64,000 nt of DNA from a bacterium (GCA_030699905.1 JAUYKQ010000027.1:1293-65292), one strand, 5' to 3'. Shown: positions 1,229 through 60,078, counted from the first letter of the stretch. The notes: generated by a model not told the origin, from the letters alone. A program made the numbers and translations.

Positions 1229-1687
1229 CTAATAGCCAAGATAAGCGCAATTTTTACACAAGCCAAAAAATTCAAGCAAATGGTTTTTGACTTTGAATTT
1301 TTTGTCCCGTAAAATCTTTCTTTCCACTTTTTCCAAATCTTCGTCCAAAATAACGTCTTCCACTTTTTCGCACACGGTGCACACCGCGTGATGGTGGTGG
1401 GGAAGTCCCGCTATTTCGTATCTTTTCTTTCCGTCTCCGAATTCAATTTCTGAAATCACTTCTTCTTTCTTTAAAAAATCCAATTCTCGGTAAATCGTTG
1501 TTTTGTTGAATTTTCGCACGGTTTTTGCCGCCTCACTCAAAATAGCGCCAGCCGAAAAGGGCTTCCTGTTTTCAGCCAAAAAACCGACTATAAACGACCT
1601 GTTTTTGGTAACCTTATGTCCACGCTCTTTAAGCGAGCGTAGTATGTTTTCCGAAAATGTCATATTTGCTGTTATGGTACTGTGCAT
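1229..1687 (-). CDS. zur: Fur-family transcriptional regulator, probably Zur. The start is uncertain (MHST at 1687 or MTFS at 1663). The longer N-terminus in the ORF track is a read-through into the family A repeat.
   Basis: Winged-helix N-terminus, an HHHH...CxxC metal-binding region, and a C-terminal CKNC, as in Fur/Zur. It lies immediately upstream of zupT on the same strand. Confidence 0.75.
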   Translation of the reverse strand: MHSTITANMTFSENILRSLKERGHKVTKNRSFIVGFLAENRKPFSAGAILSEAAKTVRKFNKTTIYRELDFLKKEEVISEIEFGDGKKRYEIAGLPHHHHAVCTVCEKVEDVILDEDLEKVERKILRDKKFKVKNHLLEFFGLCKNCAYLGY

Positions 1688-1817
1688 TACGAAATGTCTT
1701 TTTCGGCGAGGTCTTCGTGGCGCACGGAGATTTTTTACTAAAAATCTCCTCTCTCCGGCTAGAGCCGCGCCTCCGAAGGCGCCTCTCAAACCTCGCCTCA
1801 ACACCATTTCGTAATTC
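1684..1817. mobile_element. MITE-like element, family A copy 1. About 135 bp, ends (C)ATTACGAAATG ... CATTTCGTAATTC.
   Basis: Three near-identical copies (here, 19864-20006 and 59937-60078). Internal hairpins GAGATTTTTTACTAAAAATCTC and GCGCCTCCGAAGGCGCC. It generates spurious ORFs (MNYEMVLRRGLRGAFGG...). Confidence 0.8.
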
Positions 1818-1937
1818 AAGGTATAGTAGCAATTTAATAATGTATCCGTTTGAAAAAAACCTAAGGCATAGCGCGTGTCAAAAGTTTCTCTGGCAACGGA
1901 CTACTATATAATATGCAACTGGGTTGCGTTTGTCAAA

Positions 1938-2229
1938 TAAAAAAGCGGCTCTGCTTTGTAAAAGCAGAGCCGTACGCCATCCCGAGATGGCGTACAGTCC
2001 ACAAGAGCGCCCGAACCGTACCAGTTGGTGGCAGTGGACTGTAGAACAAACGCTGGGAGCATCCGTGGCTCAACTCAACGGAGCGCGGTTTAGGCCGGGC
2101 GAAGTCGGCCTTCGGCGCGACGTAGTCACTTCGGCTTGTGACGAAGTCGGCCTTTTCCTCGCGGACATTTCCCTCCAGACAATAGGGGAAAGGTTGAGGA
2201 GCGACAATCAGATGCTCCCAGCTAAAACT
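1938..2229 (-). ncRNA. Candidate structured small RNA of unknown class, about 290 nt and GC-rich. It has its own sigma70-like promoter and an intrinsic terminator.
   Basis: The minus strand carries TTGACA-17nt-TATCAT at 2264-2236. A 12 bp long-range stem (GCTGGGAGCATC/GATGCTCCCAGC) encloses about 165 nt. Several internal hairpins, including C(UUCG)G. It ends in two 3' hairpins followed by a T-run (1944-1972). Not protein-like; the ORF-track entry 1924..2331 translates to low-complexity junk. Confidence 0.5.
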
Positions 2230-2235
2230 TGCAAG

Positions 2236-2264
2236 ATGATACACTTTTACAATTTTTTTGTCAA
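2236..2264 (-). promoter_or_regulatory. sigma70-like promoter (TTGACA, 17 nt spacer, TATCAT) for the candidate ncRNA
   Basis: Read directly on the minus strand: ttgacaaaaaaattgtaaaagtgtatcat. Confidence 0.5.
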
Positions 2265-2390
2265 CTTTTTGTATTCGTCCACCACTAACAAGGGAAGCCG
2301 GGGAATAGGTAAATCACAAAAAGACGCCTGACCTTAAATATAAAATATCGTCCATTATCCTACTGTTTATTATTCATTCCCATTATATCC

Positions 2391-2927
2391 CTACGGACAA
2401 CTGCCGCCGAATGTCATGATGCCGTTCGTACCGTTACCGTAGTGAAATGGTTGACCGTTGCACGCAATTACACCATCAGTGTTTTGTATGGGGTTAGATG
2501 TATCTTCTAAACGATACAATATCATATACCACTGTTGATTTGTCTGTCCCGGAGCGCGATAGCCACCTGAATAATACGAATAGGTGTAATTACCGTTGTA
2601 CGCATGGCCGGGAGATATGCTATTGCTGTTAACCGGATCCACAGGCATCATTGGAAGATACGGCTCCAGTGCCGTGCCGAGGACGCCCGTCTCCCATGTG
2701 GTTTGGTGACTGCTGACCCAGGAGGTATAAGGATAATATCCGCGGTCGTCATAATACAATTCCAACGCTTTTTGAATTTCTCGAATTTCAGTTATCCTCC
2801 TCGTATCCCTCGCCCTCTTTCGCGCGCCGTCTAAACTCGAAAAAACCACTGACGACAGCAGGCCTATGATGGCTATCACCACTAAAAGTTCTATCAGAGT
2901 GAATCCTCGCTTGCTTCGCAAGTTCAC
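2391..2927 (-). CDS. Type IV pilin-like protein with a prepilin-type N-terminal cleavage/methylation domain
   Basis: N-terminus [28 protein letters not shown], which is a class III signal peptide. Gly/Tyr/Asn-rich C-terminus. Confidence 0.85.
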   Translation of the reverse strand: MNLRSKRGFTLIELLVVIAIIGLLSSVVFSSLDGARKRARDTRRITEIREIQKALELYYDDRGYYPYTSWVSSHQTTWETGVLGTALEPYLPMMPVDPVNSNSISPGHAYNGNYTYSYYSGGYRAPGQTNQQWYMILYRLEDTSNPIQNTDGVIACNGQPFHYGNGTNGIMTFGGSCP

Positions 2928-3196
2928 ACCTGTTTTGGAAAAAACAGGTGTGGGGGGTAAACCCTTTTTTATTATTCATATAAAAATTCAGCACCTATGT
3001 CTGCCTCTATGATTTGACCATTATCATAATCTGACCATACCCTATGAGAAAGATAATCGTTTATGAAAAAGACCACTAAAATCAAAAGAGTGAGGCCGAG
3101 AAAGATATCCGACGCGTTGTAGTAAATGACAATCTTGGCATCTTTCCTGCTGTCATGCATATGTCTTTTGTGGATGAATTTAAACATGTTTATATT

Positions 3197-3358
3197 CTTT
3201 GAATTACGAAACTCCAAATCCGCGTCTTTCTTTTCAATTTCGGCTACGGCTTTGCAAAAATTATTCAACAGATACTCTGTATATGCCTCATAATTTTTGC
3301 TTCGCCTCGCCCGAAATTGAAAAGAAATCCATCGGAAGCGAGTTTCGTAACTCAAAGT
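3197..3358. mobile_element. MITE-like element, family C copy 1. About 160 bp, ends CTTTGAATTACGAAACTCC ... GGAAGCGAGTTTCGTAACTCAAAGT.
   Basis: Near-identical second copy at 31531-31692. It is the source of the spurious ORFs 2972..3385 and 31513..31773 (both contain ...SYETRFRWISFQFRARRSKNYEAYTEYLLNNFCKAVAEIEKKDA...). Confidence 0.8.
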
Positions 3359-3402
3359 TATTATACGATAGTTTGTAATGGACACAACCGCTCCAATACT
3401 CG

Positions 3403-7122: not shown

Positions 7123-7136
7123 ATATACAAAATACT

Positions 7137-7939: not shown

Positions 7940-7962
7940 ATCTGCGGATATACTATCATAAA

Positions 7963-8030
7963 CTTTGAGTTACGAAACTCAAAGTTTCTTAATCTCCTAA
8001 CTTCTTAATCTCTTAATCTCTTAATTTTCT
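7963..8030. repeat. Empty fused terminal-repeat palindrome CTTTGAGTTACGAAACTCAAAGTT, followed by tandem CTTAATCT octamers
   Basis: The 24-mer equals the left and right ends of families A/B/C joined with no cargo. It is followed by tcttaatctcctaacttcttaatctcttaatctcttaatt. Confidence 0.7.
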
Positions 8031-8114
8031 CACATACACAATTATGGACGACCGCCTTTAATTGTGTATGTCGTGATGGGTGAGTAAAAGACGGGCAGAT
8101 ACACTTACCTTGAA

Positions 8115-9083
8115 TTGCGAAATGCGGCAGAAATCGGAATTTATGCTATAATAGCGGAAATGAAAGGCGTTTTCCGTAAAATGTTTACGGTGCAAAATAT
8201 CTCGCTTTTTCTGTGTGCCTTGGTTTTTGCTTCGGCCTCGCTATTTTGGGGAGAGCATAAGAGGGTGGGATTGGCAAAAGAGCTGGCCGAAAAATCAGAA
8301 AATGAAAGGCAAGAGTTCGCTTCCTCCACTGAAAAGCTCATGACGCAAGTTATTGAACTTGAAGGAGAAATCACGGCCACCCGTCAGGACAATTCCATTT
8401 TGGCAAATCTTTTGCGAGCCGAACAAACGCAGACAGGCATGTTTAAAGAACAAATAGACAGAATAGCCGGCACTGTCGGTTCTTTGGACAAGTTAAGCAA
8501 TCTTGACCCCGAGCTTCTTCATAAGTATTCAAAAGTATATTTTCTGAACGAACATTACGAGCCGGAAGGGCTTTACGCAATCCCGCCGGAGTTTGCGTTT
8601 GACGAGAAGCAGATGCAAATCCATGTCAAGGTTTGGCCGTATTTGGAAGGGCTTTTGAACTCGGCCAAGCAAGACGGTTTGAATCTTTCGGTTATCTCCG
8701 CCTTTCGCTCTTTTGATACCCAGTCATCTTTGAAATCATTTTACAAAGTGGTTTATGGGGCGGGGACAGCCAATCAGTTTAGCGCCGACCAAGGGTATTC
8801 CGAACATCAGCTCGGTACGGCTGTTGATTTCACTAACCTTCAAATGGGGGCCAGTTTTTCCGGCTTTGAAAATTCGTCTGAATATGAGTGGCTAAAGCAA
8901 AATGCCTACAAATACGGTTTCGCGCTTTCTTATCCGGAAAATAATTCATATTACAAATTTGAGCCATGGCACTGGAGGTTTGTGGGCGTTGATTTGGCTC
9001 ATAGATTAAAAAGGGAAAATAAAAACTTTTACGAACTTGAGCAACGCGAAATAGACAGATTTCTTTTGGTGATTTTTGATTAG
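8115..9083 (+). CDS. Peptidase M15 (VanY-like D-Ala-D-Ala carboxypeptidase) with an N-terminal TM and coiled coil. The start may instead be at 8160 or 8181.
   Basis: SEHQLGTAVDF motif (matching SxHxxGxAxD) and a downstream D...H. The N-terminal hydrophobic segment suggests a membrane anchor. Confidence 0.65.
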   Translation: MRNAAEIGIYAIIAEMKGVFRKMFTVQNISLFLCALVFASASLFWGEHKRVGLAKELAEKSENERQEFASSTEKLMTQVIELEGEITATRQDNSILANLLRAEQTQTGMFKEQIDRIAGTVGSLDKLSNLDPELLHKYSKVYFLNEHYEPEGLYAIPPEFAFDEKQMQIHVKVWPYLEGLLNSAKQDGLNLSVISAFRSFDTQSSLKSFYKVVYGAGTANQFSADQGYSEHQLGTAVDFTNLQMGASFSGFENSSEYEWLKQNAYKYGFALSYPENNSYYKFEPWHWRFVGVDLAHRLKRENKNFYELEQREIDRFLLVIFD

Positions 9084-9145
9084 CTGCTTTGGGGATTTGC
9101 GCTAAAAGATTTTGAGTTTCGTAATTAAAAGCACAGAACAATCAA

Positions 9146-12797: not shown

Positions 12798-12852
12798 AAT
12801 ACTTTGAATTCTTGAATTATTGTGAATTACGAAAAACGACAAGCCCCTGCCG

Positions 12853-17208: not shown

Positions 17209-17384
17209 CTCCCTTTTGTAAAGGGGGAGAGAATTTTCAATTTTGCAATTTTCAATTTTCAATCAAATCCCGAAATTTTCAATGCATCAAATTCGTAGTC
17301 AATGTTCGTCCCGCTTTGCTTGTTTCTTTGTTTGAAAATTGATTCATTGAAAATTGATTGAAAATTGCAAAATTGAAAATTCTC
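17209..17384. mobile_element. MITE-like element, family D copy 2, with full ~30 bp terminal inverted repeats
   Basis: Near-identical to 196-352. The ORF-track entry 17279..17488 is an artefact. Confidence 0.75.
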
Positions 17385-17497
17385 TTATCAATGTCCTCGT
17401 GTGACGCAGGGGCGGTGTATTCATACGATATAATCCCATAAATTTGGTAAAATTTCAATTTTTGAAAAAGCTCCGATATAGCGTACAATGTGCCTAC

Positions 17498-18787
17498 ATG
17501 GATAAAAACAACGGAAGTTTTAAGATTATCGGCGCCACCGAGCCGTCTCTGGAGGGGGAAATCTCCATTTCCGGAGCGAAAAACGCCGCTATCAAAGTGA
17601 TGGCGGCGACGCTTCTTTTTGAAGACAAGGTGCGTCTCGCGAATATCCCGCTTATTGAGGACTTGTTTACCATTTCGGAAATTATGAAGGCGATCGGGGT
17701 TTCAGTTTCTTTTCCAAAGGAACACGAGGCGGAACTTTTTTGCGGTGATATATCAAGTGAAATACCGAAAGAATTGGCAGAAAAGACCCGTTCATCAATG
17801 GTTGTTACGGCGCCACTTCTCGCGCGTACCGGCAGAGTCGTCTTTGGAAATCCGGGTGGGTGCGATTTGGGAGAAAGGCCGATTGACCTTTGGATAGAAG
17901 GGTACATGAAAATGGGAGCTACGGTTTCAGAGGAGAACGGGCTTTTCAAAGTGGAGGCAAAAGGCGGAAAACTTCGCGGAGCCGAGATTTTTTTCAGAGT
18001 TCAAAGCCACACGGTAACCGAAAGTTTTATAATGGCGGCTGTTTTGGCCGAGGGAAAAACAGTTTTGAAAAACTGCGCTTTGGAGCCGGAAATAAAATCG
18101 CTGTCTGATTTTCTAAATTCCTGCGGGGCAAAAATTACCGGCGCCGGAACGCACACAATCGTCATAGAAGGAGGAGGTCTTTTGAATGCGCGAGGAGCCA
18201 CATATGAGACATTGCCGGATCGTTTGGAAGCAGGCAGTTTTCTCGTTTTGGGCGCTCTTGCCGCCAAAAAACTTTTGATTTCAAAGTGTATTCCGGAGCA
18301 TTTGGAAATCGTCATTGAAATTTTAAGAAGAGTGGGAGCGGACATTGAAACTTCCGCGGACGGTATTGTCGTGCGAGGGGGCAGACCTTTATCCGCCGTG
18401 CCTATACGGACGCACGAATATCCCGGTCTGGCCACGGACTTGCAGGCGCCTATGGCGGTTCTTCTTACGCAGGCAAAAGGACAGTCGTCTGTTTTAGAGA
18501 CGATTTACGAGAGACGGCTTGAATACGTGCCGGAACTTCAGAAAATGGGGGCCAGAATAACTTTGCAAGATTCCCACAGAGCCATTATAGAGGGACCTTC
18601 AAAACTTTCAGGCAGTGAAGTTTCCGCCATTGACATAAGGGCGGGAATGGCGCTTGTAATAGCCGGAGCGATTGCGGATGGCCAGACGACGGTACATAAT
18701 TGCTACATGATAGATAGAGGGTACGAGAGATTGGAAGAAAAACTTAAGGGAATCGGGTTGGATATAAGGAGGAATTCGTCTTTATAA
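17498..18787 (+). CDS. murA: UDP-N-acetylglucosamine 1-carboxyvinyltransferase
   Basis: EPSP-synthase-fold MurA signatures (KNAAIKVMAATLL...RLANIP). The start is probably MDKNNG. Confidence 0.9.
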   Translation: MDKNNGSFKIIGATEPSLEGEISISGAKNAAIKVMAATLLFEDKVRLANIPLIEDLFTISEIMKAIGVSVSFPKEHEAELFCGDISSEIPKELAEKTRSSMVVTAPLLARTGRVVFGNPGGCDLGERPIDLWIEGYMKMGATVSEENGLFKVEAKGGKLRGAEIFFRVQSHTVTESFIMAAVLAEGKTVLKNCALEPEIKSLSDFLNSCGAKITGAGTHTIVIEGGGLLNARGATYETLPDRLEAGSFLVLGALAAKKLLISKCIPEHLEIVIEILRRVGADIETSADGIVVRGGRPLSAVPIRTHEYPGLATDLQAPMAVLLTQAKGQSSVLETIYERRLEYVPELQKMGARITLQDSHRAIIEGPSKLSGSEVSAIDIRAGMALVIAGAIADGQTTVHNCYMIDRGYERLEEKLKGIGLDIRRNSSL

Positions 18788-18842
18788 ATTCACATAATTT
18801 CTAATCCGACGCCCTTTGCGATCGGGGTTAGAAATTTTAGAA

Positions 18843-19856
18843 ATGTCTTTCTTTTCCACAAAACTGGGCATTGACTTGGGTACCGCGAACACTTTGGTGT
18901 TTGTCCCCGGCAAAGGGGTTGTTTTAAACGAGCCGTCCGTTGTCGCTGTTTCCGAGCAGGATAACAAAATACTGGCTGTCGGCCTTGAAGCCAAAAACAT
19001 GATAGGCAAAACACCCGAGAGTATTATCGCTTATCGTCCCATGAAGGACGGCGTTATTGCCGACTACAGAGTAACGGAAGCGATGCTCCGATATTTTATA
19101 GACAAGGCGCTCGGCAAGTGGAACTTCTGGAAGCCGGAGGTCTTGGTATCGGTGCCCGCGGGAGTAACATCCACCGAAAGGCGGGCTGTTGTTGAAGCGA
19201 CCGTTAAAGCGGGGGCCAGGGCGGCATATGTGGTCAAAGAGCCGATTTTGGGAGCCATAGGCGCCGGTATACCCATACAAGAGGCCATGGGGCATATGAT
19301 AGTGGATATTGGAGGGGGAACGACAGACGTAGCCGTTATTTCTCTTGGGGGAATCGTTTCTTCAACGTCTGTGAAATGCGCCGGAAACAGGATTGATACC
19401 GCCATTGCCGACTATATCAAAAAGACATTCAATCTCGGTATCGGGGACAAAATGTCCGAAGACATAAAGATAAAAGTCGGTTCGGCAGTCCCTCTTGAAG
19501 AGGAGCTCACGATGACCATAAAGGGCCGAGATTTTATCACCGGATTGCCTCGTACGACGGAAATAAAGACAAATGAAATAGTCAAAGCTATCGGCAAAGA
19601 GCTTCGTGAAATGATAAAAGCCATTAAAGACGTGTTGCAGGAGACACCGCCGGAATTGGCGGCGGATATCATAGACAGGGGAATAATAATGACAGGGGGC
19701 TCTTCACAGCTTCGTAATTTACCGGAGCTTGTTTATAGGCGTACGGGAGTGAAAGCGGCTTTAGCAAAGGACCCTCTTTACTGCGTAGTAAAGGGAACGG
19801 GCATAGCGCTGGAACATCTGGACACTTATAAAAAGAGCATTATTGCGAAGAGGTGA
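18843..19856 (+). CDS. mreB: Rod shape-determining protein MreB
   Basis: GIDLGTANTLVFV...NEPSVVAV and the actin-fold motifs DIGGGTTDVAVIS. Confidence 0.9.
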   Translation: MSFFSTKLGIDLGTANTLVFVPGKGVVLNEPSVVAVSEQDNKILAVGLEAKNMIGKTPESIIAYRPMKDGVIADYRVTEAMLRYFIDKALGKWNFWKPEVLVSVPAGVTSTERRAVVEATVKAGARAAYVVKEPILGAIGAGIPIQEAMGHMIVDIGGGTTDVAVISLGGIVSSTSVKCAGNRIDTAIADYIKKTFNLGIGDKMSEDIKIKVGSAVPLEEELTMTIKGRDFITGLPRTTEIKTNEIVKAIGKELREMIKAIKDVLQETPPELAADIIDRGIIMTGGSSQLRNLPELVYRRTGVKAALAKDPLYCVVKGTGIALEHLDTYKKSIIAKR

Positions 19857-19863
19857 GACAAAA

Positions 19864-20006
19864 CTGTGAATTACGAAATGTCTTTCTCGGCGAGGTCTTC
19901 GCGGCGCACGAAGATTTTTTGCTAAAAATCTTCTCTCTCCAGCGCCGGCCGCGCTTCCGAAGGCGCCACTCAAACCTCGCCTCAACACCATTTCGTAATC
20001 CACAGT
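19864..20006. mobile_element. MITE-like element, family A copy 2
   Basis: CTGTGAATTACGAAATG ... CATTTCGTAATCCACAGT. Nearly identical to copy 1. Spurious ORF 19761..20003. Confidence 0.8.
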
Positions 20007-20677: not shown

Positions 20678-21385
20678 ATGGAATTAAGAGAAATCGCGAA
20701 AAATATAAAGGATTTGCACCATTGCTATTGTTTGGAAGGCAAAAGGGACTTTGTATTGAATTCTCTTTTTGATTTTTTTGAAAAGGACTTGAATCTCAAA
20801 AGACAGGGCAATCCTGACTTTTGGATAGGGGAGTTTGATATTCTCGGTATTGACGATGTGCGTACTGTTATAGAGGCGCAAAGGCAAAAACCCGTTATGG
20901 AAGAGTGCCGGATGTTTGTAATAGCCGCTTATGAAATAACCAAGGAAGCGCAGAACGCTCTTTTAAAGGTTTTGGAAGAGCCCTCTTCTTTTACAAAATT
21001 TTTCATAATAGTGGATTCAGCCCAAGGGCTTTTGCCGACAGTCAGGTCGCGAGCTTATATCCTGTCTTTTCTTCCTCAAGACGGTATTTACGAAAATGGC
21101 TTCCGTGACAAAGCCCGAGATTTTCTTTCCTTTATCCCTGCCAAGAGGATAAAGTTTGTCAAAAAGCTTTCTGAAGATATTTCTGACGGAAAAGAGGCCA
21201 AAATCCAAGCGACACGCTTTTTGAACGCCTTGGAGTTATGCGTCAGAAACAGCAAAGATTTGTCCGAAAAAGAAAAGTTTGAAGTTTTAAGACACGTTGC
21301 TTTCGCGGAAAAATATTCACAGGACAGGGGAGCGGTGTTAAAGCAGATTCTGGAACACGTAGCCGTGTCTTTGCCCGTATTTTAG
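20678..21385 (+). CDS. holB: DNA polymerase III delta' subunit-like clamp-loader protein
   Basis: NALLKVLEEP and TVRSRAY (the SRC motif) are read directly. The N-terminus (HHCYCLEGKRDF) is a degenerate P-loop, as in delta'. Confidence 0.65.
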   Translation: MELREIAKNIKDLHHCYCLEGKRDFVLNSLFDFFEKDLNLKRQGNPDFWIGEFDILGIDDVRTVIEAQRQKPVMEECRMFVIAAYEITKEAQNALLKVLEEPSSFTKFFIIVDSAQGLLPTVRSRAYILSFLPQDGIYENGFRDKARDFLSFIPAKRIKFVKKLSEDISDGKEAKIQATRFLNALELCVRNSKDLSEKEKFEVLRHVAFAEKYSQDRGAVLKQILEHVAVSLPVF

Positions 21386-21603
21386 GGGTTTGATTGCAAA
21401 TTGAAAATTTTCTTACCTATTCTTACGTGACGGAGGATTTATGAAAACGGACAATCTACAAGAGTAAGAGTGTGAGCGATTACTGACCTTTCATTACATT
21501 ATACGGTTTTCTGTCCTGTGTGTTATAGTAATAAAACTGTTAAATAATCGGAGTTGAGTAGGGCGTGGGTATCTTTTTCCAAATAAAGATAATTTTTAAA
21601 AAT

Positions 21604-26795: not shown

Positions 26796-27860
26796 ATGTT
26801 TGAACAATTCAAATCATATTTTAATAAATACGCTTCCAACGATATCGGTATAGACCTTGGTACCGCCAATACTTTGGTTTATGTCCGAGGACAGGGCATT
26901 GTCGTAAACGAACCATCGGTTGTTGCCGTTAATCAGAAGACCGGCCAAGTGGTGGCTGTTGGTTCGCAAGCCAAAGACATGCTCGGGCGAACGCCCGGAC
27001 ACATCGTTGCCATAAAACCTCTTGTCGGAGGGGTGATTTCCGATTTTGAAGTTACGGAAGAAATGATAGCGTACCTTTTAAAAAGAGTGGAAGGCGACTC
27101 GCGCAGGATCTTGGGGCCGAGGGTGGTCATCGGTGTTCCTTCGGGTGTCACTAACGTGGAGTCCCGAGCAGTCAGAGACGCTACCAAAAACAACGGCGCT
27201 CGCGAAGTATATGTGGTGGAAGAGCCGATGGCGGCGGCCATAGGAATACGACTGCCTGTTATGGATCCCGTCGGCAGTATGATAGTTGACATAGGAGGAG
27301 GGACGACAGACGTGGCGGTTATTTCTCTTGCTGGGGTCGTGCGTTCAAAAAGTTTGAAAATAGCTGGCGACAAGTTGAACGAGGATATCATCTCCTATAT
27401 ACGAGGCGAGTTTAAAATTCTAATCGGCGAAAAGACGGCGGAGAACGTTAAAATAGCCATTGGCTCCGTGTTGCCTCAAGAGGCGCCGATGGAAGCGGTC
27501 ATAAAAGGTCGCGACCTTATCACCGGCTTGCCGAGAGAAGTCATAATTACCGACTCGGATATCAGAGAAGCCATTTGCGGTTCGGTGGATATTTTGGTGG
27601 AAGCGGTGAAAGAGGTCTTGGAAACAACTCCTCCTGAAATAGTATCGGATATAATGCATAGGGGAGCATATCTTGTCGGAGGCGGGGCTTTGCTTCGCGG
27701 TGTTGATGTTTTGTTTGCCGACTCAACAAAAGTACCTTTCCATATCGCGGACGACCCTCTGTCGGCTGTTGGTCGCGGGGCGGGCATAATCCTTGAGGAC
27801 TTGAGCAAATATGAAGAGGTGCTCATAAAAAGCGAAGATGAACTACCTCCTAAAAACTAA
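26796..27860 (+). CDS. mreB: MreB paralog (Mbl-like)
   Basis: GIDLGTANTLVYV...NEPSVVAV and DIGGGTTDVAVIS. It lies immediately upstream of mreC. Confidence 0.9.
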   Translation: MFEQFKSYFNKYASNDIGIDLGTANTLVYVRGQGIVVNEPSVVAVNQKTGQVVAVGSQAKDMLGRTPGHIVAIKPLVGGVISDFEVTEEMIAYLLKRVEGDSRRILGPRVVIGVPSGVTNVESRAVRDATKNNGAREVYVVEEPMAAAIGIRLPVMDPVGSMIVDIGGGTTDVAVISLAGVVRSKSLKIAGDKLNEDIISYIRGEFKILIGEKTAENVKIAIGSVLPQEAPMEAVIKGRDLITGLPREVIITDSDIREAICGSVDILVEAVKEVLETTPPEIVSDIMHRGAYLVGGGALLRGVDVLFADSTKVPFHIADDPLSAVGRGAGIILEDLSKYEEVLIKSEDELPPKN

Positions 27861-28640: not shown

Positions 28641-28783
28641 CTTTGAATTACGAAATACAGCAGGCGTCCCCCACGAGGAAAGTCACAAAAAAGTGACCGC
28701 TCCAAGGGCGCTTGCCCGGTCCTAGTCACTTTTTTGTGACTTTCCTCGTGGGGGGGGAAGGCGGGTGTTTCTTAATCCACAGT
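28641..28783. mobile_element. MITE-like element, family B copy 1. About 140 bp, with a poly-C/poly-G core hairpin (CCCCCACGAGG...AAAAGTGACCGCTCCAAGGGCGCTTG...GTCACTTTTTTGTGACTTTCCTCGTGGGGGG).
   Basis: Four copies (28641, 30887, 33773, 49775). The left end is CTTTGAATTACGAAA; the right end is degenerate in this copy. Confidence 0.8.
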
Positions 28784-30776: not shown

Positions 30777-30886
30777 TCATCTCTCCCTAATTCTTAATTC
30801 ATAATTCATAAATCCTAAATCCTATTTCGTGGAGTATCTTTTCCTCCACTATCGTGTTATACTTCTGTGGTAAGATTTATAATAAA

Positions 30887-31026
30887 CTGTGAATTACAAA
30901 ACACCTGCTTCCCCCCCTCGGAAAGCTCCCAAAAAAGTGACCGCTCCAAGGGCGCTTGTCCGGTCCCAGTCACTTTTTTGTGACTTTCCTCGTGGGGGGG
31001 GAGCATGCCGTTTTTTGTAATTCAAG
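30887..31026. mobile_element. MITE-like element, family B copy 2
   Basis: CTGTGAATTACAAAACACCTGCTTCCCCCCC...TTTTTTGTAATTCAAG. It is preceded by short AATTCATA/AATCCTA tandem units at 30795-30826. Confidence 0.8.
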
Positions 31027-31047
31027 AATAATAAAATAAAAAAACTT

Positions 31048-31530: not shown

Positions 31531-31692
31531 CTTTGAATTACGAAACTCCAATTCCGCGTCTTTCTTTTCAATTTCGGCTACGGCTTTGCAAAAATTATTC
31601 AACAGATACTCTGTATACGCCTCATAATTTTTGCTTCGCCTCGCTCGAAATTGAAAAGAAATCCATCGGAAGCGAGTTTCGTAACTCAAAGT
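31531..31692. mobile_element. MITE-like element, family C copy 2
   Basis: Nearly identical to 3197-3358. Confidence 0.8.
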
Positions 31693-33727: not shown

Positions 33728-33757
33728 AAACCCGCCACTCTCGTGGCGGGTTTTTTT
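33728..33757 (+). terminator. Intrinsic terminator
   Basis: AAACCCGCCACTCTCGTGGCGGGTTTTTTT. Confidence 0.75.
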
Positions 33758-33772: not shown

Positions 33773-33919
33773 CTGTGAATTACGAAACACTTGCTTACCC
33801 CCCCACGAGGGAAAGCTCCCAAAAAAGTGACCGCTCCAAGGGCGCTTGCCCAGTCTTAGTCACTTTTTTGTGACTTTCCTCGTGTGGGGGGCCACCTGCC
33901 GTATTTCGTAACTCAAAGT
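33773..33919. mobile_element. MITE-like element, family B copy 3
   Basis: CTGTGAATTACGAAACACTTGCTTACCCCCCCACGAGG...GCCGTATTTCGTAACTCAAAGT. Confidence 0.8.
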
Positions 33920-48823: not shown

Positions 48824-49741
48824 CTATAGCCACTTTTTGTGTTTAAAAAACCAAAAGAAAATCACCGTTAAAATCGCCATTAGTCCCACGACAATCCAAA
48901 AATCCTGCGGATGGCCGACTATCGGAAGATTATCCGTATTCATACCGAAAACTCCGGCTATAAGGGAAAGAGGGAAAGTTATAAAAGCCATTATGGTAAG
49001 GACTTTCATTATCTCGTTCTGTTTTGTGGAAAGAAGAGAATTATTGGTCTGTCGTAGCTCTCCCAAAAAAGATCGGTTTGTTTCAATGGCCGCCTCTATA
49101 CGGTAGTACTCACCTAAAATTTTGCTCAGATAGTAAGTGAACTCCTCTCCGAAAAATCTGCGTCCGGCTATTTCAAAAGAATTCAAGACCTCTTTGTGGT
49201 TGCTGGTGGCTTGGGTAAAGCTCAAAAGCTCTCGGCTGACGTCAGAGAGCGCCCTGACCATATCTTTTTCTTGGCCGTCAAATATTTTCTCCTGAATGAC
49301 CTGCAGGGAGTCCTTTATTCCCTCCAGTTCATTCAAAAGGGACTGGTAGGCCTCGCCAATCATGTAGAAAAAAATAAATCCAGCGTGTTCTCCAGCGTTC
49401 GGTCTGTCTAAAATAGAGTTGACCTCAAAGATTTTTGAAAACTTATGCAGGGCTTCTATTTCGTCGTATCGGACCGTGATTATAAAGTCCTTGCCGATAA
49501 CGAAATCAACTTCTTTGGTTATGCCTATGTTACCTCTTTTGCTATGGAGGGTGGGGAAGTGCAAAATCAGGTAAATATAATCGGAATACAAGTCCACTCG
49601 GGGTTTAAGAGTGGGGGTGAGAAATTCTTGACCGACTATCGGGTGTATTCCGTACTCTTCAACAATCCAGCGTACTTCTTCGTCCGATGGCGATTCAAGA
49701 TCAATCCATGTGAGACGGTTATGAGTGTGAGTTGTAAGCAT
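48824..49741 (-). CDS. corA: CorA-family Mg2+/Co2+ transporter
   Basis: Two C-terminal TM helices with a GMN motif (GVFGMNT). Cytoplasmic N-terminal domain. The upstream portion of the ORF-track ORF runs into the family B repeat, so the start at MLTTH (49741) is preferred. Confidence 0.8.
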   Translation of the reverse strand: MLTTHTHNRLTWIDLESPSDEEVRWIVEEYGIHPIVGQEFLTPTLKPRVDLYSDYIYLILHFPTLHSKRGNIGITKEVDFVIGKDFIITVRYDEIEALHKFSKIFEVNSILDRPNAGEHAGFIFFYMIGEAYQSLLNELEGIKDSLQVIQEKIFDGQEKDMVRALSDVSRELLSFTQATSNHKEVLNSFEIAGRRFFGEEFTYYLSKILGEYYRIEAAIETNRSFLGELRQTNNSLLSTKQNEIMKVLTIMAFITFPLSLIAGVFGMNTDNLPIVGHPQDFWIVVGLMAILTVIFFWFFKHKKWL

Positions 49742-49774
49742 CGGCGTGGCTTTGTGTCGGCGATGGTTTTTAAA

Positions 49775-49913
49775 CTGTGAATTACGAAACGCCTGCCCCC
49801 CACGAGGGAAAGCTCCCAAAAAAGTGACCGCTCCAAGGGCGCTTGCCTAGGGCTCAGTCACTTTTTTGTGACTTTCCTCGTGGGGGGGCGACTGCCGTAT
49901 TTTGTAATTCAAG
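49775..49913. mobile_element. MITE-like element, family B copy 4
   Basis: CTGTGAATTACGAAACGCCTGCCCCCCACGAGG...GCCGTATTTTGTAATTCAAG. Confidence 0.8.
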
Positions 49914-50040
49914 ATTTTTAAACCTTTGTCGCTCGAACTTTACTTGACTTAAATTATAACTCACGGACGGCAATTCACAACTCATAACTCGGTAACCGAT
50001 TACATTCTTTTTTTTCTTTCCACAAATCCGACGACAACAA

Positions 50041-51300
50041 TTGCGCAATTATTTTAATTTTGAGATAATGAGTGGAACTATGCAAAAAGAAAGAAGTAAA
50101 AATATCGGCACCGTAGTGGGCGTGGTTATTCTTATCGCCGTTTCTTTCGGTGTGGGAGTGAATGTAGGAAACAATCAGGTTAGTTCCGTGGCTACTTCTA
50201 ATATTTTGAATGTGGACAACGGCAAGCCGGATGAGGTTGACTTCTCGCCTTTTTGGAAAGCGTGGAATATTTTGAACGAAAAATACGTTACTACCGCCAC
50301 AAGCACTTCGGACCAGCAAAAGATATGGGGAGCCATAGAAGGTTTGGCCGCTTCTTTGGGCGACCCTTACACCTCCTTTTTTCCTCCTGTTGAGAAAAAG
50401 CAATTTGATGAGGAGATAAGCGGTAACTTTGAAGGGGTCGGCATGGAGGTTGATTTGCGCGATGGAGTTCTCACGGTGGTCGCGCCTCTTAAGGGTACGC
50501 CCGCTTACAGGGCGGGAATAGAACCGGAAGACCAGATAATCAAAATTGACGACAAGCCGACTCTCGGACTTTCTGTGGAAGACGCGGTAAAAGCTATCCG
50601 CGGGCCCAAGGGCAGTACAGTAACGCTGACTATTTTCCGGCTAAAAAACGGCGAAGAACCGATAAAAGTGGAAATTGTCCGAGATGTCATAGACATTCCG
50701 TCATTGGAAACCGAAACAAAGGACGGCGTCTTTATAATCCGGCTTTACAACTTCTCCGCTCCTTCGCAGAACGATTTCAGAGAAGCTCTTCGTGAGTTTG
50801 TGGAGGCGCAAACTCCGTATCTTGTTTTGGACTTGCGTGGCAATCCCGGCGGGTACTTGGGTTCGTCCATTGACATGGCTTCTTGGTTTTTGCCTCAAGG
50901 TAAAGTCATAGTAACGGAGGATTTCGGCCAAAACAGCGAACCGCGAGTTTACAGAAGTTTGGGACGAAACGCTTTTAACAAAAATTTAAGAATGGTGATT
51001 CTCGTAAACGGAGGTACCGCCTCGGCTTCGGAAATTCTTGCCGGAGCTCTGTCGGAACACAAAATGGCTGTGCTTGTCGGCACTCAAACTTTTGGAAAAG
51101 GTTCCGTACAGGAGCTTGTTCCCGTGACGGAGGATACGGCGCTCAAAGTAACGATAGCCCGATGGCTCACGCCTAACGGACTGTCTCTTTCGGAGGGGGG
51201 GATTACTCCGGACGTGGTTGTTGAAATGACAAGAGAGGACATTGAAGCGGGCTTGGATCCGCAGTTGGACAAGGCGTTAGAGTTGGTAAAAAATATGTAG
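50041..51300 (+). CDS. ctp: Carboxyl-terminal processing protease (S41, tail-specific) with a PDZ domain
   Basis: PDZ region, GNPGGYL, and Ser/Lys dyad context (GGTASASEILAGAL...TFGKGSVQ). Confidence 0.9.
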   Translation: MRNYFNFEIMSGTMQKERSKNIGTVVGVVILIAVSFGVGVNVGNNQVSSVATSNILNVDNGKPDEVDFSPFWKAWNILNEKYVTTATSTSDQQKIWGAIEGLAASLGDPYTSFFPPVEKKQFDEEISGNFEGVGMEVDLRDGVLTVVAPLKGTPAYRAGIEPEDQIIKIDDKPTLGLSVEDAVKAIRGPKGSTVTLTIFRLKNGEEPIKVEIVRDVIDIPSLETETKDGVFIIRLYNFSAPSQNDFREALREFVEAQTPYLVLDLRGNPGGYLGSSIDMASWFLPQGKVIVTEDFGQNSEPRVYRSLGRNAFNKNLRMVILVNGGTASASEILAGALSEHKMAVLVGTQTFGKGSVQELVPVTEDTALKVTIARWLTPNGLSLSEGGITPDVVVEMTREDIEAGLDPQLDKALELVKNM

Positions 51301-51370
51301 GTCGGGAGGAACCGGCTATGATTTACGATTTATGATTCAGGATTTAGGAGAAAAGAAAATAACCAGAAGG

Positions 51371-51426
51371 GGGACAGATGGGCACCATCACTCCCGATGT
51401 CGGGAGTGATGGTGCCCATCTGTCCC
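51371..51426. repeat. Perfect 27 bp inverted repeat with a 2 nt spacer (GGGACAGATGGGCACCATCACTCCCGA tg TCGGGAGTGATGGTGCCCATCTGTCCC)
   Basis: Read directly. No following T-run, so it is unlikely to be a simple terminator. It lies about 60 nt upstream of rplI. Confidence 0.8.
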
Positions 51427-52461: not shown

Positions 52462-52490
52462 GAGGTCATTATAACTAAAGATATTGAGCT

Positions 52491-52949: not shown

Positions 52950-52955
52950 TAAAAT

Positions 52956-54988: not shown

Positions 54989-54992
54989 AAGA

Positions 54993-56207: not shown

Positions 56208-56284
56208 ATATTAGCATATTTTACCGCAGTTAGAGCAACTTATATGGACAGAGTGCTTCTAAAAGGTTAATATTAGTGCCGAAA

Positions 56285-56355
56285 CGGGGTGTAGTATAGT
56301 GGTAGTATTCACGATTCGGGTTCGTGAGACGGGAGTTCGACTCTCCCCACCCCGA
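56285..56355 (+). tRNA. tRNA-Pro (anticodon CGG)
   Basis: Acceptor CGGGGTG/CACCCCG, anticodon stem-loop CACGA-TTCGGGT-TCGTG, T-arm GGGAGTTCGACTCTCCC. Confidence 0.8.
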
Positions 56356-56431
56356 AATTTTAGGATTAGCATGAGAGAAGAGGTGTTGACTTTTCCACAG
56401 CAAGAAATTTCGAAAACAGTATAATTCTGTT

Positions 56432-57376
56432 ATGAATAATGAAACACAAATAAATCAGGGAGGTCAGATAAATGAGCAGGTTTCGGGTACGAGCGTCCTG
56501 CCTTCCGGAAGCGCTCTCATGTCGGAGACGTGGGGATTGTACCGCTCCAAGCTTGCGACTCTTATAGGGGTGGCGATAGTGCCTGCTCTCGTCATGTTTT
56601 TATTCGTGAATTTTCTTAACATGGCCCCGGAACAAGGCGGTCAAGGTGGCGCAATGTTAGCTGGCTGGTTCAGTTTTTTTATTTTGGCCGTCCTGGTTCA
56701 GATAATAGTTTACGCTTGGGGACAGATTGCCATTATAGAAGCGGTTTCAGAAACGGGGGAAATTACAGTCGCGGAAAGTTTTGGCAGAGCCAAGAGAAAA
56801 ATCGGCTCCTATATCTGGCTCATCATTTTGAGTTCCTTTTTTGTTATGGGAGGTTCGCTTTTGTTCATCATACCGGGCATGATTTTCGGAATTTGGTTTG
56901 TTTTTGGGGTTTACATTATCGTCTGTGAAAATGAAAAGGGATTCAGAGCTCTTTTGAAGTCAAGAGAATATATGCGCAGTAGAACCTTTAAAGTGCTTTG
57001 GCGGCTTTTCGTGGTTGGGTTTGCCGCCCTTATAGGAAGCGTTGTTTTAAATGTCGCTTTCATGCCGTTTGGCAAGGAAATGGGCGCGTCAATAGCCAGA
57101 TTACTGTTTGCCGTAGTCGTTTCTCCGTTTGTGGCAGCTTACATGTATCTTCTGTTTATCCGCCTCAGAGAAGCCAGAGGCGCTTTTGTTTTTGAACCGG
57201 AAACTAAAACCAAAGTTGCTTATATCGGCACGGCCCTTCTGGGCTTTATACTTATGCCGGCTGTACTCCTCGGTATTCTGTTTTTCAAATTTGACGAAAT
57301 AAAAGCAACGATAACTCCGATGAATGCGTATGAGGAAATGAGTGAGGACGAGGGGGTTATTGAACTTAAACCATGA
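56432..57376 (+). CDS. Hypothetical polytopic membrane protein
   Basis: Multiple TM helices. Gln/Gly-rich N-terminus. Confidence 0.5.
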   Translation: MNNETQINQGGQINEQVSGTSVLPSGSALMSETWGLYRSKLATLIGVAIVPALVMFLFVNFLNMAPEQGGQGGAMLAGWFSFFILAVLVQIIVYAWGQIAIIEAVSETGEITVAESFGRAKRKIGSYIWLIILSSFFVMGGSLLFIIPGMIFGIWFVFGVYIIVCENEKGFRALLKSREYMRSRTFKVLWRLFVVGFAALIGSVVLNVAFMPFGKEMGASIARLLFAVVVSPFVAAYMYLLFIRLREARGAFVFEPETKTKVAYIGTALLGFILMPAVLLGILFFKFDEIKATITPMNAYEEMSEDEGVIELKP

Positions 57377-57969
57377 TAGTTGTTGACGTAGAAACGACCG
57401 GAACAGACCCACACGTTCACGGTATTGTATCCGTTGGGGCCGTGGATTTGGCAAGTCCGGAAAGGAGGTTTTACGATGAGTGTCGCGTCTTTGAAGGCGC
57501 CCATGTGATGGAAGAAGCTCTCGGTATAAACGGTTTTACGGAAAAAGAAATACACGATCCGAGCAAAAAAACCGAAGAACAAGTTTTGAGGTCTTTTATT
57601 CCTTGGGCCATGGATACCGATGACCACACCTTGGCGGGACACAATCCTATTTTTGATATTTCCATGCTTCAAACGGCCGCCAAACGATACGGACTTGATT
57701 GGCCTTTTCCGCACAGGAGTATAGACAGTCATTCTGTTTGTTTTGCTCACATGATATGGAAAGGGAAGAAACCGCCGACAGAAAAGGGCAGGACAGCTCT
57801 TAACCTTGATTCCGTCTTAAAATATGTCGGTTTACCGCCTGAACCAAGGCCACACAACGGCCTGCAAGGAGCTTTACGGGCGGCGGAAGCGCTGTCGCGA
57901 CTTCTTTACGGCAAGGGTCTTTTGCCGGAGTTTGAAAAATGCCCCATTTGGGGAGATTTGCCCTCTTGA
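57373..57969 (+). CDS. DEDD-family 3'-5' exonuclease (DnaQ-like)
   Basis: Exo I motif VVDVETTG. Downstream HNPIFD and H...D consistent with DEDDh. Confidence 0.75.
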   Translation: MIVVDVETTGTDPHVHGIVSVGAVDLASPERRFYDECRVFEGAHVMEEALGINGFTEKEIHDPSKKTEEQVLRSFIPWAMDTDDHTLAGHNPIFDISMLQTAAKRYGLDWPFPHRSIDSHSVCFAHMIWKGKKPPTEKGRTALNLDSVLKYVGLPPEPRPHNGLQGALRAAEALSRLLYGKGLLPEFEKCPIWGDLPS

Positions 57970-58170
57970 TTTGGCAAAGCGTTGATTTTGTTGTTCAATT
58001 TAAATGAGTTGTCTCGCCTAAAAAACGGCTCTGCAGAGCCGTTTTTTAGGCGATTGATAATCCTGCTTTTCTCTTTTTAGTATTGACAATGAAAACGTTT
58101 TATGCTAATATATAAAGACAGTCAGACGAAAGTCTGATTTTAAATTTTATCTCTGGACCTTTACGGAAAG

Positions 58171-58665
58171 GTGAACGGAGAGATTATGATAGAACTTACA
58201 ATTTCATCAATGCTTATGCTTTCGGCCTTCTATGGGGGCGCGGGAGCGACCGAAGTATCTTCGGCTAAAAGCACAATTCCAGTTCAAGTTAACATTAACC
58301 AAATCAGTGAAAGGGAAGGGGAGGTAGACGAAAATAAAATATATCCTCTTACTCTTGAACAGTACGTCAGAGAGTATTTTGAGGAAGAACCCATTCTTGC
58401 CGAAATAGCCAAGTGCGAATCAACATTCAGGCACTTTGGAAAAAATGGGAAAGTTATTCGCGGTATCCAAAACAGGGAAGACGTTGGTCTCATGCAGATT
58501 AACGAATACTTCCATGGCGATAGCGCAAAGAAGAACGGCTTTGACATCTATTCTCTTGAGGGGAACATGTCCTATGCCAAATGGCTTTACGAAAGGCAGG
58601 GAAGCGTCCCTTGGGTGCACTCTTCCAAGTGCTGGAAGAAAAGCGAACATTTCGCCAAGAAATAA
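58171..58665 (+). CDS. Hypothetical secreted protein, possibly a transglycosylase/lysozyme-like fold
   Basis: Signal-like N-terminus. IAKCES...GLMQIN resembles the catalytic region of lytic transglycosylase-like domains. Weak. Confidence 0.35.
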   Translation: MNGEIMIELTISSMLMLSAFYGGAGATEVSSAKSTIPVQVNINQISEREGEVDENKIYPLTLEQYVREYFEEEPILAEIAKCESTFRHFGKNGKVIRGIQNREDVGLMQINEYFHGDSAKKNGFDIYSLEGNMSYAKWLYERQGSVPWVHSSKCWKKSEHFAKK

Positions 58666-58672
58666 TAGCAGA

Positions 58673-58705
58673 AAAAACACTCGGATTTTGTCCGAGTGTT
58701 TTTTC
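58673..58705. terminator. Bidirectional intrinsic terminator
   Basis: AAAAAACACTCGGATTTTGTCCGAGTGTTTTTT. Confidence 0.75.
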
Positions 58706-58971
58706 TTATCCGCTCAAATCCCCTGCTATCGCTGTAAAGAGAGGGGAGTGGCAGTAGTCCCCCTTAAGAGGAGCGCCTTGCCCCGTTAGAAATTAGAAAG
58801 AGGTTTCTAACGGGGCGGCCTCTCCGGCCGACCCTCCAGAGGGGAGAGAGATAGGGGGTGTGGATAACTTTTTTTGAAGTTCTTTTAAAGATGCTAAAAT
58901 TAATAATCATGGTTCGCATAATTTAAGTTAATCGTACCATGCCGTTAAAATTAAGCCCATAATTTATTGTC

Positions 58972-59922
58972 ATGGATAAAAGCAAAAAACCCCTTCCCTC
59001 TCACCTGCAAGATTTTTTGGATTGGATAGACGTGGAAAAGGGACTTTCTCCAAAGTCGCAAGAAAACTATTCCCGCTTCCTCAAGCGCTTCTTTGATTGG
59101 CTTAAAATTAAAAAACTTGAAGAGCTTAAGCCCCACGAGCTGACTCGCGAGCATGTTTTTGATTACCGTTTGTTTCTGTCGAGATCCACTCGTTCGGCTC
59201 GGACAAACGAACCTCTTAAGAAAAGCACCCAGAACTACTACTTGATAGCCCTGCGGATGTTTTTAAGCTTCTTTGCCCATAGGAACTTCCTGTCACTGCC
59301 TGTTGAGAAGGTTCCATTGGCCAGGGACAAAAGCGAGCGCCACGTGCGTTTTATGGAGCTTGAACAGCTTGAAAAACTTTTTGAGGCGCCTGATATCACT
59401 ACACCTCAAGGCATTCGCGACAGGAGCATTTTAGAGACATTTTTTTCCACCGGACTTCGTATTTCGGAATTAGTGGCTTTAAACGCCGACCAAATAAAAA
59501 TTGGTAAAGGCGGCAGGGAGGTCTTTGAACTTAGTATACAAGGCAAGGGAGGCCGGATACGAACCGTCTATTTTTCTTTGCGCGCCCTTTTGTGGCTTGA
59601 AAAATACATGGAGGTTAGGAGTGACACCCACCCTGCCCTTTTTGTGGCTTTTGGAAAAAATGGTAAAAAAATCAGCCGTTTGACTTCCCGCTCCATAGAA
59701 AAATCGTTTAAGCATTACATAATAAAAGCCGGATTGCCTCTTATAATGACACCGCATGCCATGCGACACAGTTTTGGCACCAACCTTCTTAAAAACGGAG
59801 TCGATTTACGCGTTATTCAAGAATTTTTAGGACATAAAAACATAGCGGCCACTCAAATGTACGCTCATGTGACAAGTAAACAGTTAAAGGACATCCATAA
59901 GAATCTTCACGGGAAGAAATAA
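58972..59922 (+). CDS. xerC: Tyrosine recombinase of the XerC/XerD type
   Basis: N-terminal SAM-like domain. Catalytic R...HxxR...Y (HAMRHSFGTNLL...LGHKNIAATQMYAHV). Confidence 0.85.
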   Translation: MDKSKKPLPSHLQDFLDWIDVEKGLSPKSQENYSRFLKRFFDWLKIKKLEELKPHELTREHVFDYRLFLSRSTRSARTNEPLKKSTQNYYLIALRMFLSFFAHRNFLSLPVEKVPLARDKSERHVRFMELEQLEKLFEAPDITTPQGIRDRSILETFFSTGLRISELVALNADQIKIGKGGREVFELSIQGKGGRIRTVYFSLRALLWLEKYMEVRSDTHPALFVAFGKNGKKISRLTSRSIEKSFKHYIIKAGLPLIMTPHAMRHSFGTNLLKNGVDLRVIQEFLGHKNIAATQMYAHVTSKQLKDIHKNLHGKK

Positions 59923-59936
59923 AAGAGGTATTAAAC

Positions 59937-60078
59937 CTTGAATTACGAAATGTCTTTTTCGGCGAGGTCTTCGTACGCCACGAAGATTTTTTACTAAAAA
60001 TCTCCTCTCTCCGGCGCCAGCCGCGCCTCCGAAGGCGCCTCTCAAACCTCGCCTCAACACCATTTCGTAATTCACGGT
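59937..60078. mobile_element. MITE-like element, family A copy 3
   Basis: TTGAATTACGAAATG...CATTTCGTAATTCACGGT. Spurious ORF 59884..60075. Confidence 0.8.

Follow-up and report, generated by a model that had tools for sequence, protein, structure and literature searches.

A 64,000-nucleotide stretch of a bacterial genome assembly (GCA_030699905.1 JAUYKQ010000027.1:1293-65292; the whole stretch is referred to as the window, and positions are counted from its first nucleotide) contains nine short repeated elements that are most probably miniature inverted-repeat transposable elements (MITEs), noncoding foldbacks whose ends come from a clade of IS982-family insertion sequences (ISs) widespread in Patescibacteria. 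We put the probability of this reading at about 90%. The terminal inverted repeats, 15-20 nt long and of the form CTKTGAATTACGAAA(C/T)..., are the ends of that IS982-family clade, and the elements combine a size of 140-161 bp and a lack of coding sequence with flanking duplications, dispersed copies, and ends common to autonomous ISs. IS982-derived MITEs and foldback MITEs in bacteria are already known. What sets the present elements apart is the conservation of their ends across a phylum-level radiation, their many unrelated palindromic interiors, and their dense distribution in a very small genome. No prior description turned up in the searchable literature; the end sequence, used as a query, retrieved only unrelated eukaryotic and primer matches, and searches on MITEs of Patescibacteria and on inverted repeats of insertion sequences of the Candidate Phyla Radiation (CPR) returned nothing relevant.

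Counted with up to 1 mismatch, the window contains 21 occurrences of the core 12-mer of the ends, TGAATTACGAAA, versus 0.9 expected, and none of 100 shuffles equaled that number. Repeat finding and direct reading yielded nine complete elements of 140-161 bp in three families (three copies of family A, four of family B, and two of family C), all of which have the ends CTKTGAATTACGAAA and TTTCGTAAYTCAMAG. Pairwise identity is 89-93% within family A (142 bp each), 82-89% within family B (140-146 bp), and 98% within family C (161 bp). Between families, global alignment of the interiors gives an identity of only 47-52%, and they are thus unrelated. An initial annotation of the window, made by a model from the sequence alone, had described nine elements in three families with unrelated interiors and one set of ends, and this inventory holds for the complete copies. 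It missed the target-site duplications, a collapsed element (7963-7984), and three lone ends (8108-8122, 9117-9131, and 12820-12834), which are treated below. The complete elements are as follows.

MITE A copy 1 (A1), 1680-1821, 142 bp: between fur (- strand) and a + strand open reading frame (ORF); flanking 7-mers TATGGTA and TATAGTA, 6/7 identical
MITE A copy 2 (A2), 19864-20005, 142 bp: begins 8 nt past an mreB-like stop codon, with convergent genes on either side; no duplication preserved
MITE A copy 3 (A3), 59936-60077, 142 bp: begins 14 nt past an xerC/D-like gene; perfect 7-bp duplication TATTAAA
MITE B copy 1 (B1), 28641-28782, 142 bp: begins 3 nt past the mreC stop codon; right end degenerate (TTTCTTAATCCACAG); no duplication
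MITE B copy 2 (B2), 30887-31027, 141 bp: perfect 8-bp duplication ATAATAAA; stops 20 nt short of the next ATG
MITE B copy 3 (B3), 33773-33918, 146 bp: preceded directly by a canonical terminator-like hairpin (33728-33753); no duplication preserved
MITE B copy 4 (B4), 49775-49914, 140 bp: perfect 8-bp duplication TTTTTAAA; divergent ORFs on either side
MITE C copy 1 (C1), 3197-3357, 161 bp: 98% identical to C2 and to a locus of another genome (L065)
MITE C copy 2 (C2), 31531-31691, 161 bp

Each of the nine elements sits in a spacer between long ORFs, often 3-20 nt from a stop or start codon, in agreement with the earlier observation that all copies lie at gene boundaries. With nine complete copies and four remnants in 64 kb, the density is ~1 MITE per 7 kb. 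The elements are noncoding throughout. The term cargo, which had been applied to their interiors, was therefore too strong, as these are noncoding palindromes without genes. The sole ORFs in the elements are artifactual read-throughs, such as the TTG-started NYEMVLRRG..., and reading of the sequence confirmed that the elements create false ORFs, as exemplified by (M)NYEMVLRRGLRGAFGG, which is a family A end read on the reverse strand from a TTG. Genome annotation is affected accordingly, because the elements yield both false ORFs and false N-terminal extensions, for example of fur (1229-1819) and of the ORF at 48824-49819.

Direct repeats in the flanking DNA indicate that the elements have moved. 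Flanks were scored directly outside CTK...MAG for 136 MITEs from the window and from CPR genome assemblies, and 67 of them have perfect direct repeats of 6-8 bp on their two sides, distributed by length as follows.

6-bp perfect repeats: 25/136 MITEs, 0.77 expected
7-bp perfect repeats: 33/136 MITEs, 0.55 expected
8-bp perfect repeats: 9/136 MITEs, 0.07 expected
9-10 bp perfect repeats: 0/136 MITEs, 0 expected

Because these numbers far exceed expectation, the elements must have transposed. Within the window the duplications match at 7/7 positions for A3, 8/8 for B2 and B4, and 6/7 for A1. The targets that became duplicated are rich in A and T and follow a roughly symmetrical pattern, T-W-W-N-W-W-A. 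Neither a static motif nor a site-specific recombination site nor an element of the repetitive extragenic palindromic (REP) type is compatible with these duplications.

The initial annotation had recommended looking for a full-length element with the same ends and a transposase. Such elements were found, not in the window but in other Patescibacteria genomes and metagenomes, and they belong to the IS982 family. One of them (2864-3889 of L157; L numbers denote retrieved loci) is a full-length element of 1,026 bp with the ends ACTTTGAATTACAAAATTCC and GGAATTTCGTAATTCAAAGT, a flanking duplication, and a 268-amino-acid (aa) ORF that matches the DDE domains PF13612 and PF01609. The best NCBIfam family for this ORF is IS982, at 114 bits, under the cut-off of 130. 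Homologs of the L157 transposase (n = 2,693) are mostly on ~1-kb contigs, as expected for collapsed repeats, and include Yanofskybacteria proteins. Among these homologs, P0088 carries the NCBI name 'IS982 family transposase [Patescibacteria group bacterium]', and P0018, P0088, P0061, and P0002 score 131.6-135.9 bits against the 130 cut-off of the NCBIfam IS982 equivalog NF033520. PF13612 is matched by all five tested transposases, and 4/5 exceed the NF033520 cut-off. With four scores barely above 130, and L157 at 114, the partner transposases are best assigned, by profile similarity, to a divergent IS982 clade.

The ISs and the MITEs agree both in their ends and in the duplications they generate. 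Eighty metagenome loci were selected on nothing but the similarity of their transposase to the query (59-100% identity), and these, together with L157, L242, L248, and L249, make up the 84 IS loci analyzed. The core is present with at most 1 mismatch at both ends, ~950-1,100 bp apart, in 71 of the 84. The partner ISs are 974-1,021 bp from core to core (~980-1,027 bp in full), have inverted repeats of ~16-20 nt and duplications of 6-7 bp, and contain one ORF for a DDE transposase of 266-269 aa. Their end consensus is aCTTTGAATTACGAAActCc, and a short form that covers the IS and MITE ends of this clade is CTTTGAATTACGAAA. Copies in genomes have CYTTGAATTACGAAA... ends ~1,017-1,022 bp apart and duplications such as TATAATA. 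Among 62 pairs of IS flanks there are 11 duplications of 7 bp and 4 of 6 bp, and the modal duplication length is the same in the MITEs and the ISs. Because the IS set was not selected on a DNA motif, the match in ends and duplication length is independent evidence, suggesting that the MITEs and the IS982-type ISs belong to one transposition system. A tblastn search with four IS982-type transposases found no transposase or remnant in the window or in 120 MITE loci, which fits nonautonomous elements. The earlier statement that the window lacks a transposase gene thus stands for the IS982 type, the only family checked, with the addition that an XerC/D-like recombinase gene adjoins A3.

Two long-distance end pairs were rejected as autonomous elements. 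The pair in L113 (4.8 kb) encloses an NAD(P)H-hydrate dehydratase, a DNA methylase, and a TrwB-like ATPase, the pair in L102 (2 kb) encloses an LTD/PKD surface protein, and neither contains a transposase; both are unrelated lone ends. A 990-bp pair in L132, with an unrelated ORF inside and poor ends, was treated as chance. The L157 contig (IMGVR_UViG_3300005683_000207) is catalogued as viral and is either from a CPR phage carrying the IS, and hence a possible vector, or a misclassified cellular fragment. A scan of viral contigs with the 15-mer end gave mostly single chance-level matches and no MITE-type pairs; L157 was found by luck.

On gene similarity, the window is assigned to a genome of the Patescibacteria (CPR), in keeping with the tiny genome supposed in the initial annotation. 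Its core genes have 63-71% nucleotide identity to loci of a Taylorbacteria genome (L063) and of assembly JAUYJM01 (L105), and the next-best homologs of its VanY protein, which is identical to NCBI MDP3996706.1, are from Taylorbacteria, Paceibacterota, and other Patescibacteria. The window has a G+C content of 44% and three tRNAs in an Rfam scan. Genomes of CPR/Patescibacteria are ~1 Mb and are usually described as streamlined. Genomes, one per species, were scanned for the pattern TGAATTACGAAA-N(105-135)-TTTCGTAAYTCA with exact 12-mers at both ends, and this paired-end pattern occurs in at least 78 assemblies, counted by accession prefix, with at least 120 matching stretches in all. Among the matches listed, nearly all are labeled Patescibacteria (Parcu-, Nomura-, Wildermuth-, Uhr-, Gottesman-, Magasanik-, Kuenen-, Taylor-, Vogel-, Ryan-, and Doudnabacteria and others). 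The block conserved over 133 elements is ttACTTTGAATTACGAAAc, and conservation collapses directly inside it. The interiors among the matches listed fall into ~20 families of at least two members, and 26 are singletons; among the same matches, family C is present in at least seven other genome assemblies and family A in at least three, and family B is present in the window only. CPR-type MITEs also occur in TPA_asm records labeled 'uncultured Gammaproteobacteria bacterium' or 'Candidatus Saccharibacteria' (L028, L041, L047, L053, L069, L070, L075, L086, L087, L094-L096, and others). These taxonomic labels are doubtful because L047 has 67% nucleotide identity to a gene in the window.

Comparison with JAUYJM01 suggests that the families are a horizontally shared pool. 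Syntenic core genes of JAUYJM01 and the window are 71% identical (L105 239-2556 versus window 17565-19858), whereas the JAUYJM01 copies are 85-94% (family A) and 97-98% (family C) identical to those in the window. The identity of family A across genomes is not below that within the window (89-93%). One JAUYJM01 copy (L029) lies well inside a 35-kb contig; the other three of the four are at contig ends, which is a caveat. Occupancy differs as well, as the spacer after mreB holds A2 in the window and no MITE in the relative (L105). This pattern of sharing indicates recent exchange between lineages or, alternatively, strong constraint. MITEs that are 85-98% identical between genomes with 71% identical core genes can serve to trace recent exchange of DNA among CPR bacteria that have not been cultivated. 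A density of ~1 MITE/7 kb and an end pair kept across dozens of candidate phyla show that one IS982 clade and its hitchhikers are pervasive in the radiation. Several metagenome contigs end exactly in a MITE (L001 3393-3423, L065 2-163, L105 7151-7293, and L108 5320-5460, as well as the ends of L012, L031, and L068). Such breaks (L001, L065, L105, and L108) fragment CPR assemblies.

We propose that the transposase is supplied by a full-length IS elsewhere in the genome or the community, that it would bind both MITE ends, and that the MITE would be inserted at an AT-rich target (~T-W-W-N-W-W-A) by cuts staggered 6-8 bp, with repair of the staggered cuts producing the flanking direct repeats. The intergenic positions could result from the choice of AT-rich targets combined with selection against insertions into genes in a compact genome, and compensatory change at the DNA level maintains the palindromic interiors. 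The presence of the same families in distantly related genomes points to horizontal spread of the pool. Because the window has no transposase or remnant, mobilization would have to be in trans. We infer that an IS982-clade transposase moves these MITEs and that this genome has, or once had, an active copy. The chemistry assumed in this scheme is likewise presumptive; to our knowledge, the chemistry of IS982 transposition has not been worked out. The idea put forward in the initial annotation, a nonautonomous pool moved by one trans-acting transposase, gains support from the target-site duplications and from the IS982-family ends in related genomes.

Several observations weigh against an IS982-driven MITE origin. 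There is no full-length IS within the window, and mobilization in trans in this organism is deduced rather than seen. There is no recognizable duplication at 5/9 copies in the window (A2, B1, B3, C1, and C2), which fits old insertions without being proof of them. The scan with exact 12-mers partly creates the apparent perfection of the MITE ends, a bias from which the IS set is free. The strong compensatory maintenance of the hairpins hints at constraint beyond hitchhiking. In addition, the MITE interiors are not derived from the IS interior, with one exception (L119 546-649). BLAST of MITE interiors against IS sequences found no similarity other than in this exception, a free MITE of 104 bp that copies the right end region of the IS in L265 (92% identical to L265 3340-3443). 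In both L265 (3340-3443) and L272 (557-655), one terminus of the IS is accompanied by a further inverted end at a distance of ~100 bp. Short elements could arise from such a configuration, which may be a snapshot of MITE birth.

All nine elements fold as one long hairpin (DNA-fold energies of -34 to -42 kcal/mol, z-scores of -7 to -10), so the strong hairpins reported earlier are real. Such stable hairpins at gene boundaries could be expected of structured small RNA genes or of cis-regulatory hairpins (terminators or mRNA stabilizers), in which the ends would be a closing stem under RNA selection. Covariation in family C is in line with this. In an alignment of nine sequences from the window and seven other genome assemblies, with 48 predicted pairs and 92.6% of cells paired, 23/48 pairs are changed on both sides, compared with 11.1 ± 2.0 in shuffles (0/500 reach 23) and 2-9 in slid controls. 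However, one-sided changes of the G-U type are almost absent in family C. Over all elements, 81% of arm positions are Watson-Crick paired, and the mismatches in 8,412 arm positions include 284 G·T versus 299 A·C, with neither strand favored and a within-element skew that is not above binomial expectation (p ~0.13). The equality of G·T and A·C and the lack of strand bias argue against a strand-specific RNA; the palindrome is kept symmetrically at the DNA level. An Rfam covariance-model scan of the window gave no match at gathering threshold except the three tRNAs. Consensus terminators were not enriched (11 found versus 8.5 expected), B3 follows a terminator-like hairpin that is separate from it, and promoter and terminator consensus scans revealed no enrichment and no consistent overlap with the elements. 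The ends are explained without RNA by the duplications and by the identical ends on transposase-bearing ISs. The suggestion that the elements are small RNAs embedded in a repeat scaffold was therefore not upheld, given the lack of an Rfam match and of wobble-pair strand asymmetry, and we consider an RNA origin of the elements very unlikely. The elements may have a secondary, exapted role. Upkeep of the palindromes might possibly proceed via a transposition requirement, arm-to-arm correction, or a host function. The compensatory evolution, together with near-identity across genomes whose core genes are 71% identical, also prompts the view that a phylum-wide, horizontally exchanged pool of IS982-driven foldback MITEs has hairpin interiors under selection of their own and has been recruited as functional DNA or RNA hairpins at gene boundaries. 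We are doubtful of this extension. If it were true, the hairpins would be insulators, terminators, mRNA-end protectors, or recombination hot spots and thus more than parasites.

The palindromic architecture, in which compensatory changes keep the hairpin, is also what is seen in REP doublets forming hairpins (REPINs), and the 22-bp hairpin at 7963-7984 might be viewed as a 'singlet'. Elements of this kind would be multiplied by a REP-associated tyrosine transposase (RAYT), an IS200-like Y1 enzyme acting on single-stranded hairpins. The core includes TTAC, which we take to be the target of IS608, a lead rather than a test. However, the elements are flanked by 6-8 bp duplications, and Y1 transposases make none. 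Their ends equal those of a DDE element of the IS982 family, and no Y1_Tnp match was found among the proteins examined, which were a small sample only. With duplications present and a DDE enzyme as the partner transposase, the elements depart from the REP/REPIN-RAYT pattern, and such an origin is highly improbable. We give equally little credence to the ends being sites for a tyrosine recombinase (an Xer/pdif module or integron attC-like cassettes) on which the XerC/D-like gene by A3 would act. This gene (58972-59922, with Phage_integrase and SAM-like N-terminal domains) does end 14 nt before A3, and variable interiors lie between inverted sites, as does, in one case, a whole gene (VanY, 8108-9131). 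Yet duplications of 6-8 bp with variable sequence are not a product of tyrosine recombinases, the elements occur one by one among housekeeping genes and form no arrays, the recombinase gene adjoins only 1/9 copies, and VanY, whose homologs are at most 60% identical and, where named, all from the CPR, looks vertically inherited. Variable duplications and a scattered distribution are not features of attC or Xer (dif, pdif) sites; similarity to dif was judged by eye only. The recombinase is probably a housekeeping Xer protein. A generic CPR palindrome or protein-binding motif without mobility could account for a motif conserved in genomes of 29-54% GC (judged by assembly names) and for lone half-sites without an element, but not for the duplications, the same ends on transposase-bearing ISs, the difference in occupancy at an orthologous spacer, or a cross-genome MITE identity far above that of core genes. 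The initial annotation had allowed for a palindrome without insertion signatures; the duplications are such signatures, and a static motif is scarcely credible.

Among known systems, MITEs of IS982 origin have been described in the Cardinium endosymbiont of Oedothorax gibbosus, in which MITECca01 derives from the IS982-family element ISCca4 (PMC9769881). Like the elements in the window, MITECca01 is a short noncoding element without a transposase that occurs many times in a small genome; its inverted repeats closely resemble those of an IS982-family IS, and its mobilization is presumed to take place in trans (PMC9769881). It is a single lineage-specific family of ~240 bp that keeps IS-derived sequence by the repeat, with its parental IS in the same genome (PMC9769881). 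In contrast, the elements studied here (100-170 bp) make up many families in at least 78 Patescibacteria assemblies, which have one end pair in common but interiors that are unrelated and palindromic throughout, with no IS in the window. The partner ISs resemble the IS982 family (NF033520) in their length of ~1 kb, single DDE transposase ORF, short inverted repeats, and short variable duplications. Unlike IS982-family ISs, the window elements have no ORF and have only the ends in common with them. Length, single ORF, inverted repeats, and duplications of the partner ISs also agree with the family ranges in ISfinder, which for duplications in IS982 is 3-9 bp. ISfinder lists the ends of IS982 as 'AC', whereas the elements here begin with C (CTTTG), the A before it being part of the duplicated target. 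Foldback MITEs of bacteria include Correia/NEMIS (Neisseria), RUP (Streptococcus pneumoniae), ERIC, Nezha (cyanobacteria), and the Rickettsia palindromic elements; of these, Correia and RUP are known to have duplications and a presumed partner IS. The present elements resemble these in being noncoding, 100-200 bp long, intergenic, and present in many copies with terminal inverted repeats and long hairpins. They differ in end sequence, in the IS982 partner family, in the host phylum, and in having one set of ends with many unrelated interiors across a phylum-level radiation.

In addition to the complete elements, the window contains four remnants.

Collapsed element, 7963-7984, 22 bp: CTTTGAGTTACGAAA fused directly to CTCAAAG
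Lone left-type end, 8108-8122, + strand: CCTTGAATTGCGAAA, 38 nt upstream of the probable start of a VanY/M15 peptidase gene
Lone right-type end, 9117-9131, - strand: TTTCGTAATTAAAAG, 34 nt downstream of the VanY gene
Lone left-type end, 12820-12834, + strand: TTGTGAATTACGAAA, adjoining the 3' end of a formyltransferase gene; truncated element

The collapsed element, read as a MITE remnant after internal deletion, forms an 11-bp stem with an ACGA loop when one flanking base per side is included (7961-7986). The VanY/M15 peptidase gene (8160-9083, in the ORF at 8115-9083) lies between the inverted ends at 8108-8122 and 9117-9131, a span of 1,024 bp, the same length as a full IS. The ORF at 8115-9083 was considered as a transposase and rejected, because it is the peptidase. 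The arrangement recalls the passenger genes of mobile insertion cassettes (MICs), such as MIC231 of Bacillus cereus. Unlike in MICs, the flanks of the bracket (8108-9131) show no duplication, each end has 1 mismatch, and the gene behaves as vertically inherited. Its next-best homologs are at most 60% identical (51-56% where query coverage is at least 91%), and all named ones are from the CPR, which suggests vertical inheritance. A passenger gene or mobile insertion cassette was therefore rejected, and the ends flanking VanY are more likely two decayed MITE remnants.

Other features of the window include two MreB paralogs (18816-19856 and 26796-27860), the second followed by mreC, which share a 95-nt stretch with 74% identity. 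A second, unrelated palindromic repeat family of ~150-160 bp has copies at 211-353 and 17228-17385 and a partial third copy at 21381-21417, and it contains a 29-bp perfect inverted repeat (AGAGAATTTTCAATTTTGCAATTTTCAAT ... ATTGAAAATTGCAAAATTGAAAATTCTCT). The spacer with the copy at 17228-17385 is 285 nt long versus 73 nt in the syntenic spacer of L105 (2632-2705). Because that spacer is only 73 nt, this family looks like another inserted MITE-like element. Intergenic tandem arrays of heptamers (CCTAAAT, TTCATAA, and CTTAATC variants) are found at 344-432, 30786-30839, 51317-51359 (inverted), and 7986-8025, and several of them directly adjoin MITEs or the collapsed element. A similar ATTCATA array at 338-419 of L319 precedes the left end of the IS there by ~1 kb. 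Downstream of the ORF at 50041-51300, a perfect 27-bp inverted repeat with a 2-nt gap (GGGACAGATGGGCACCATCACTCCCGA / TCGGGAGTGATGGTGCCCATCTGTCCC) lies at 51371-51426.

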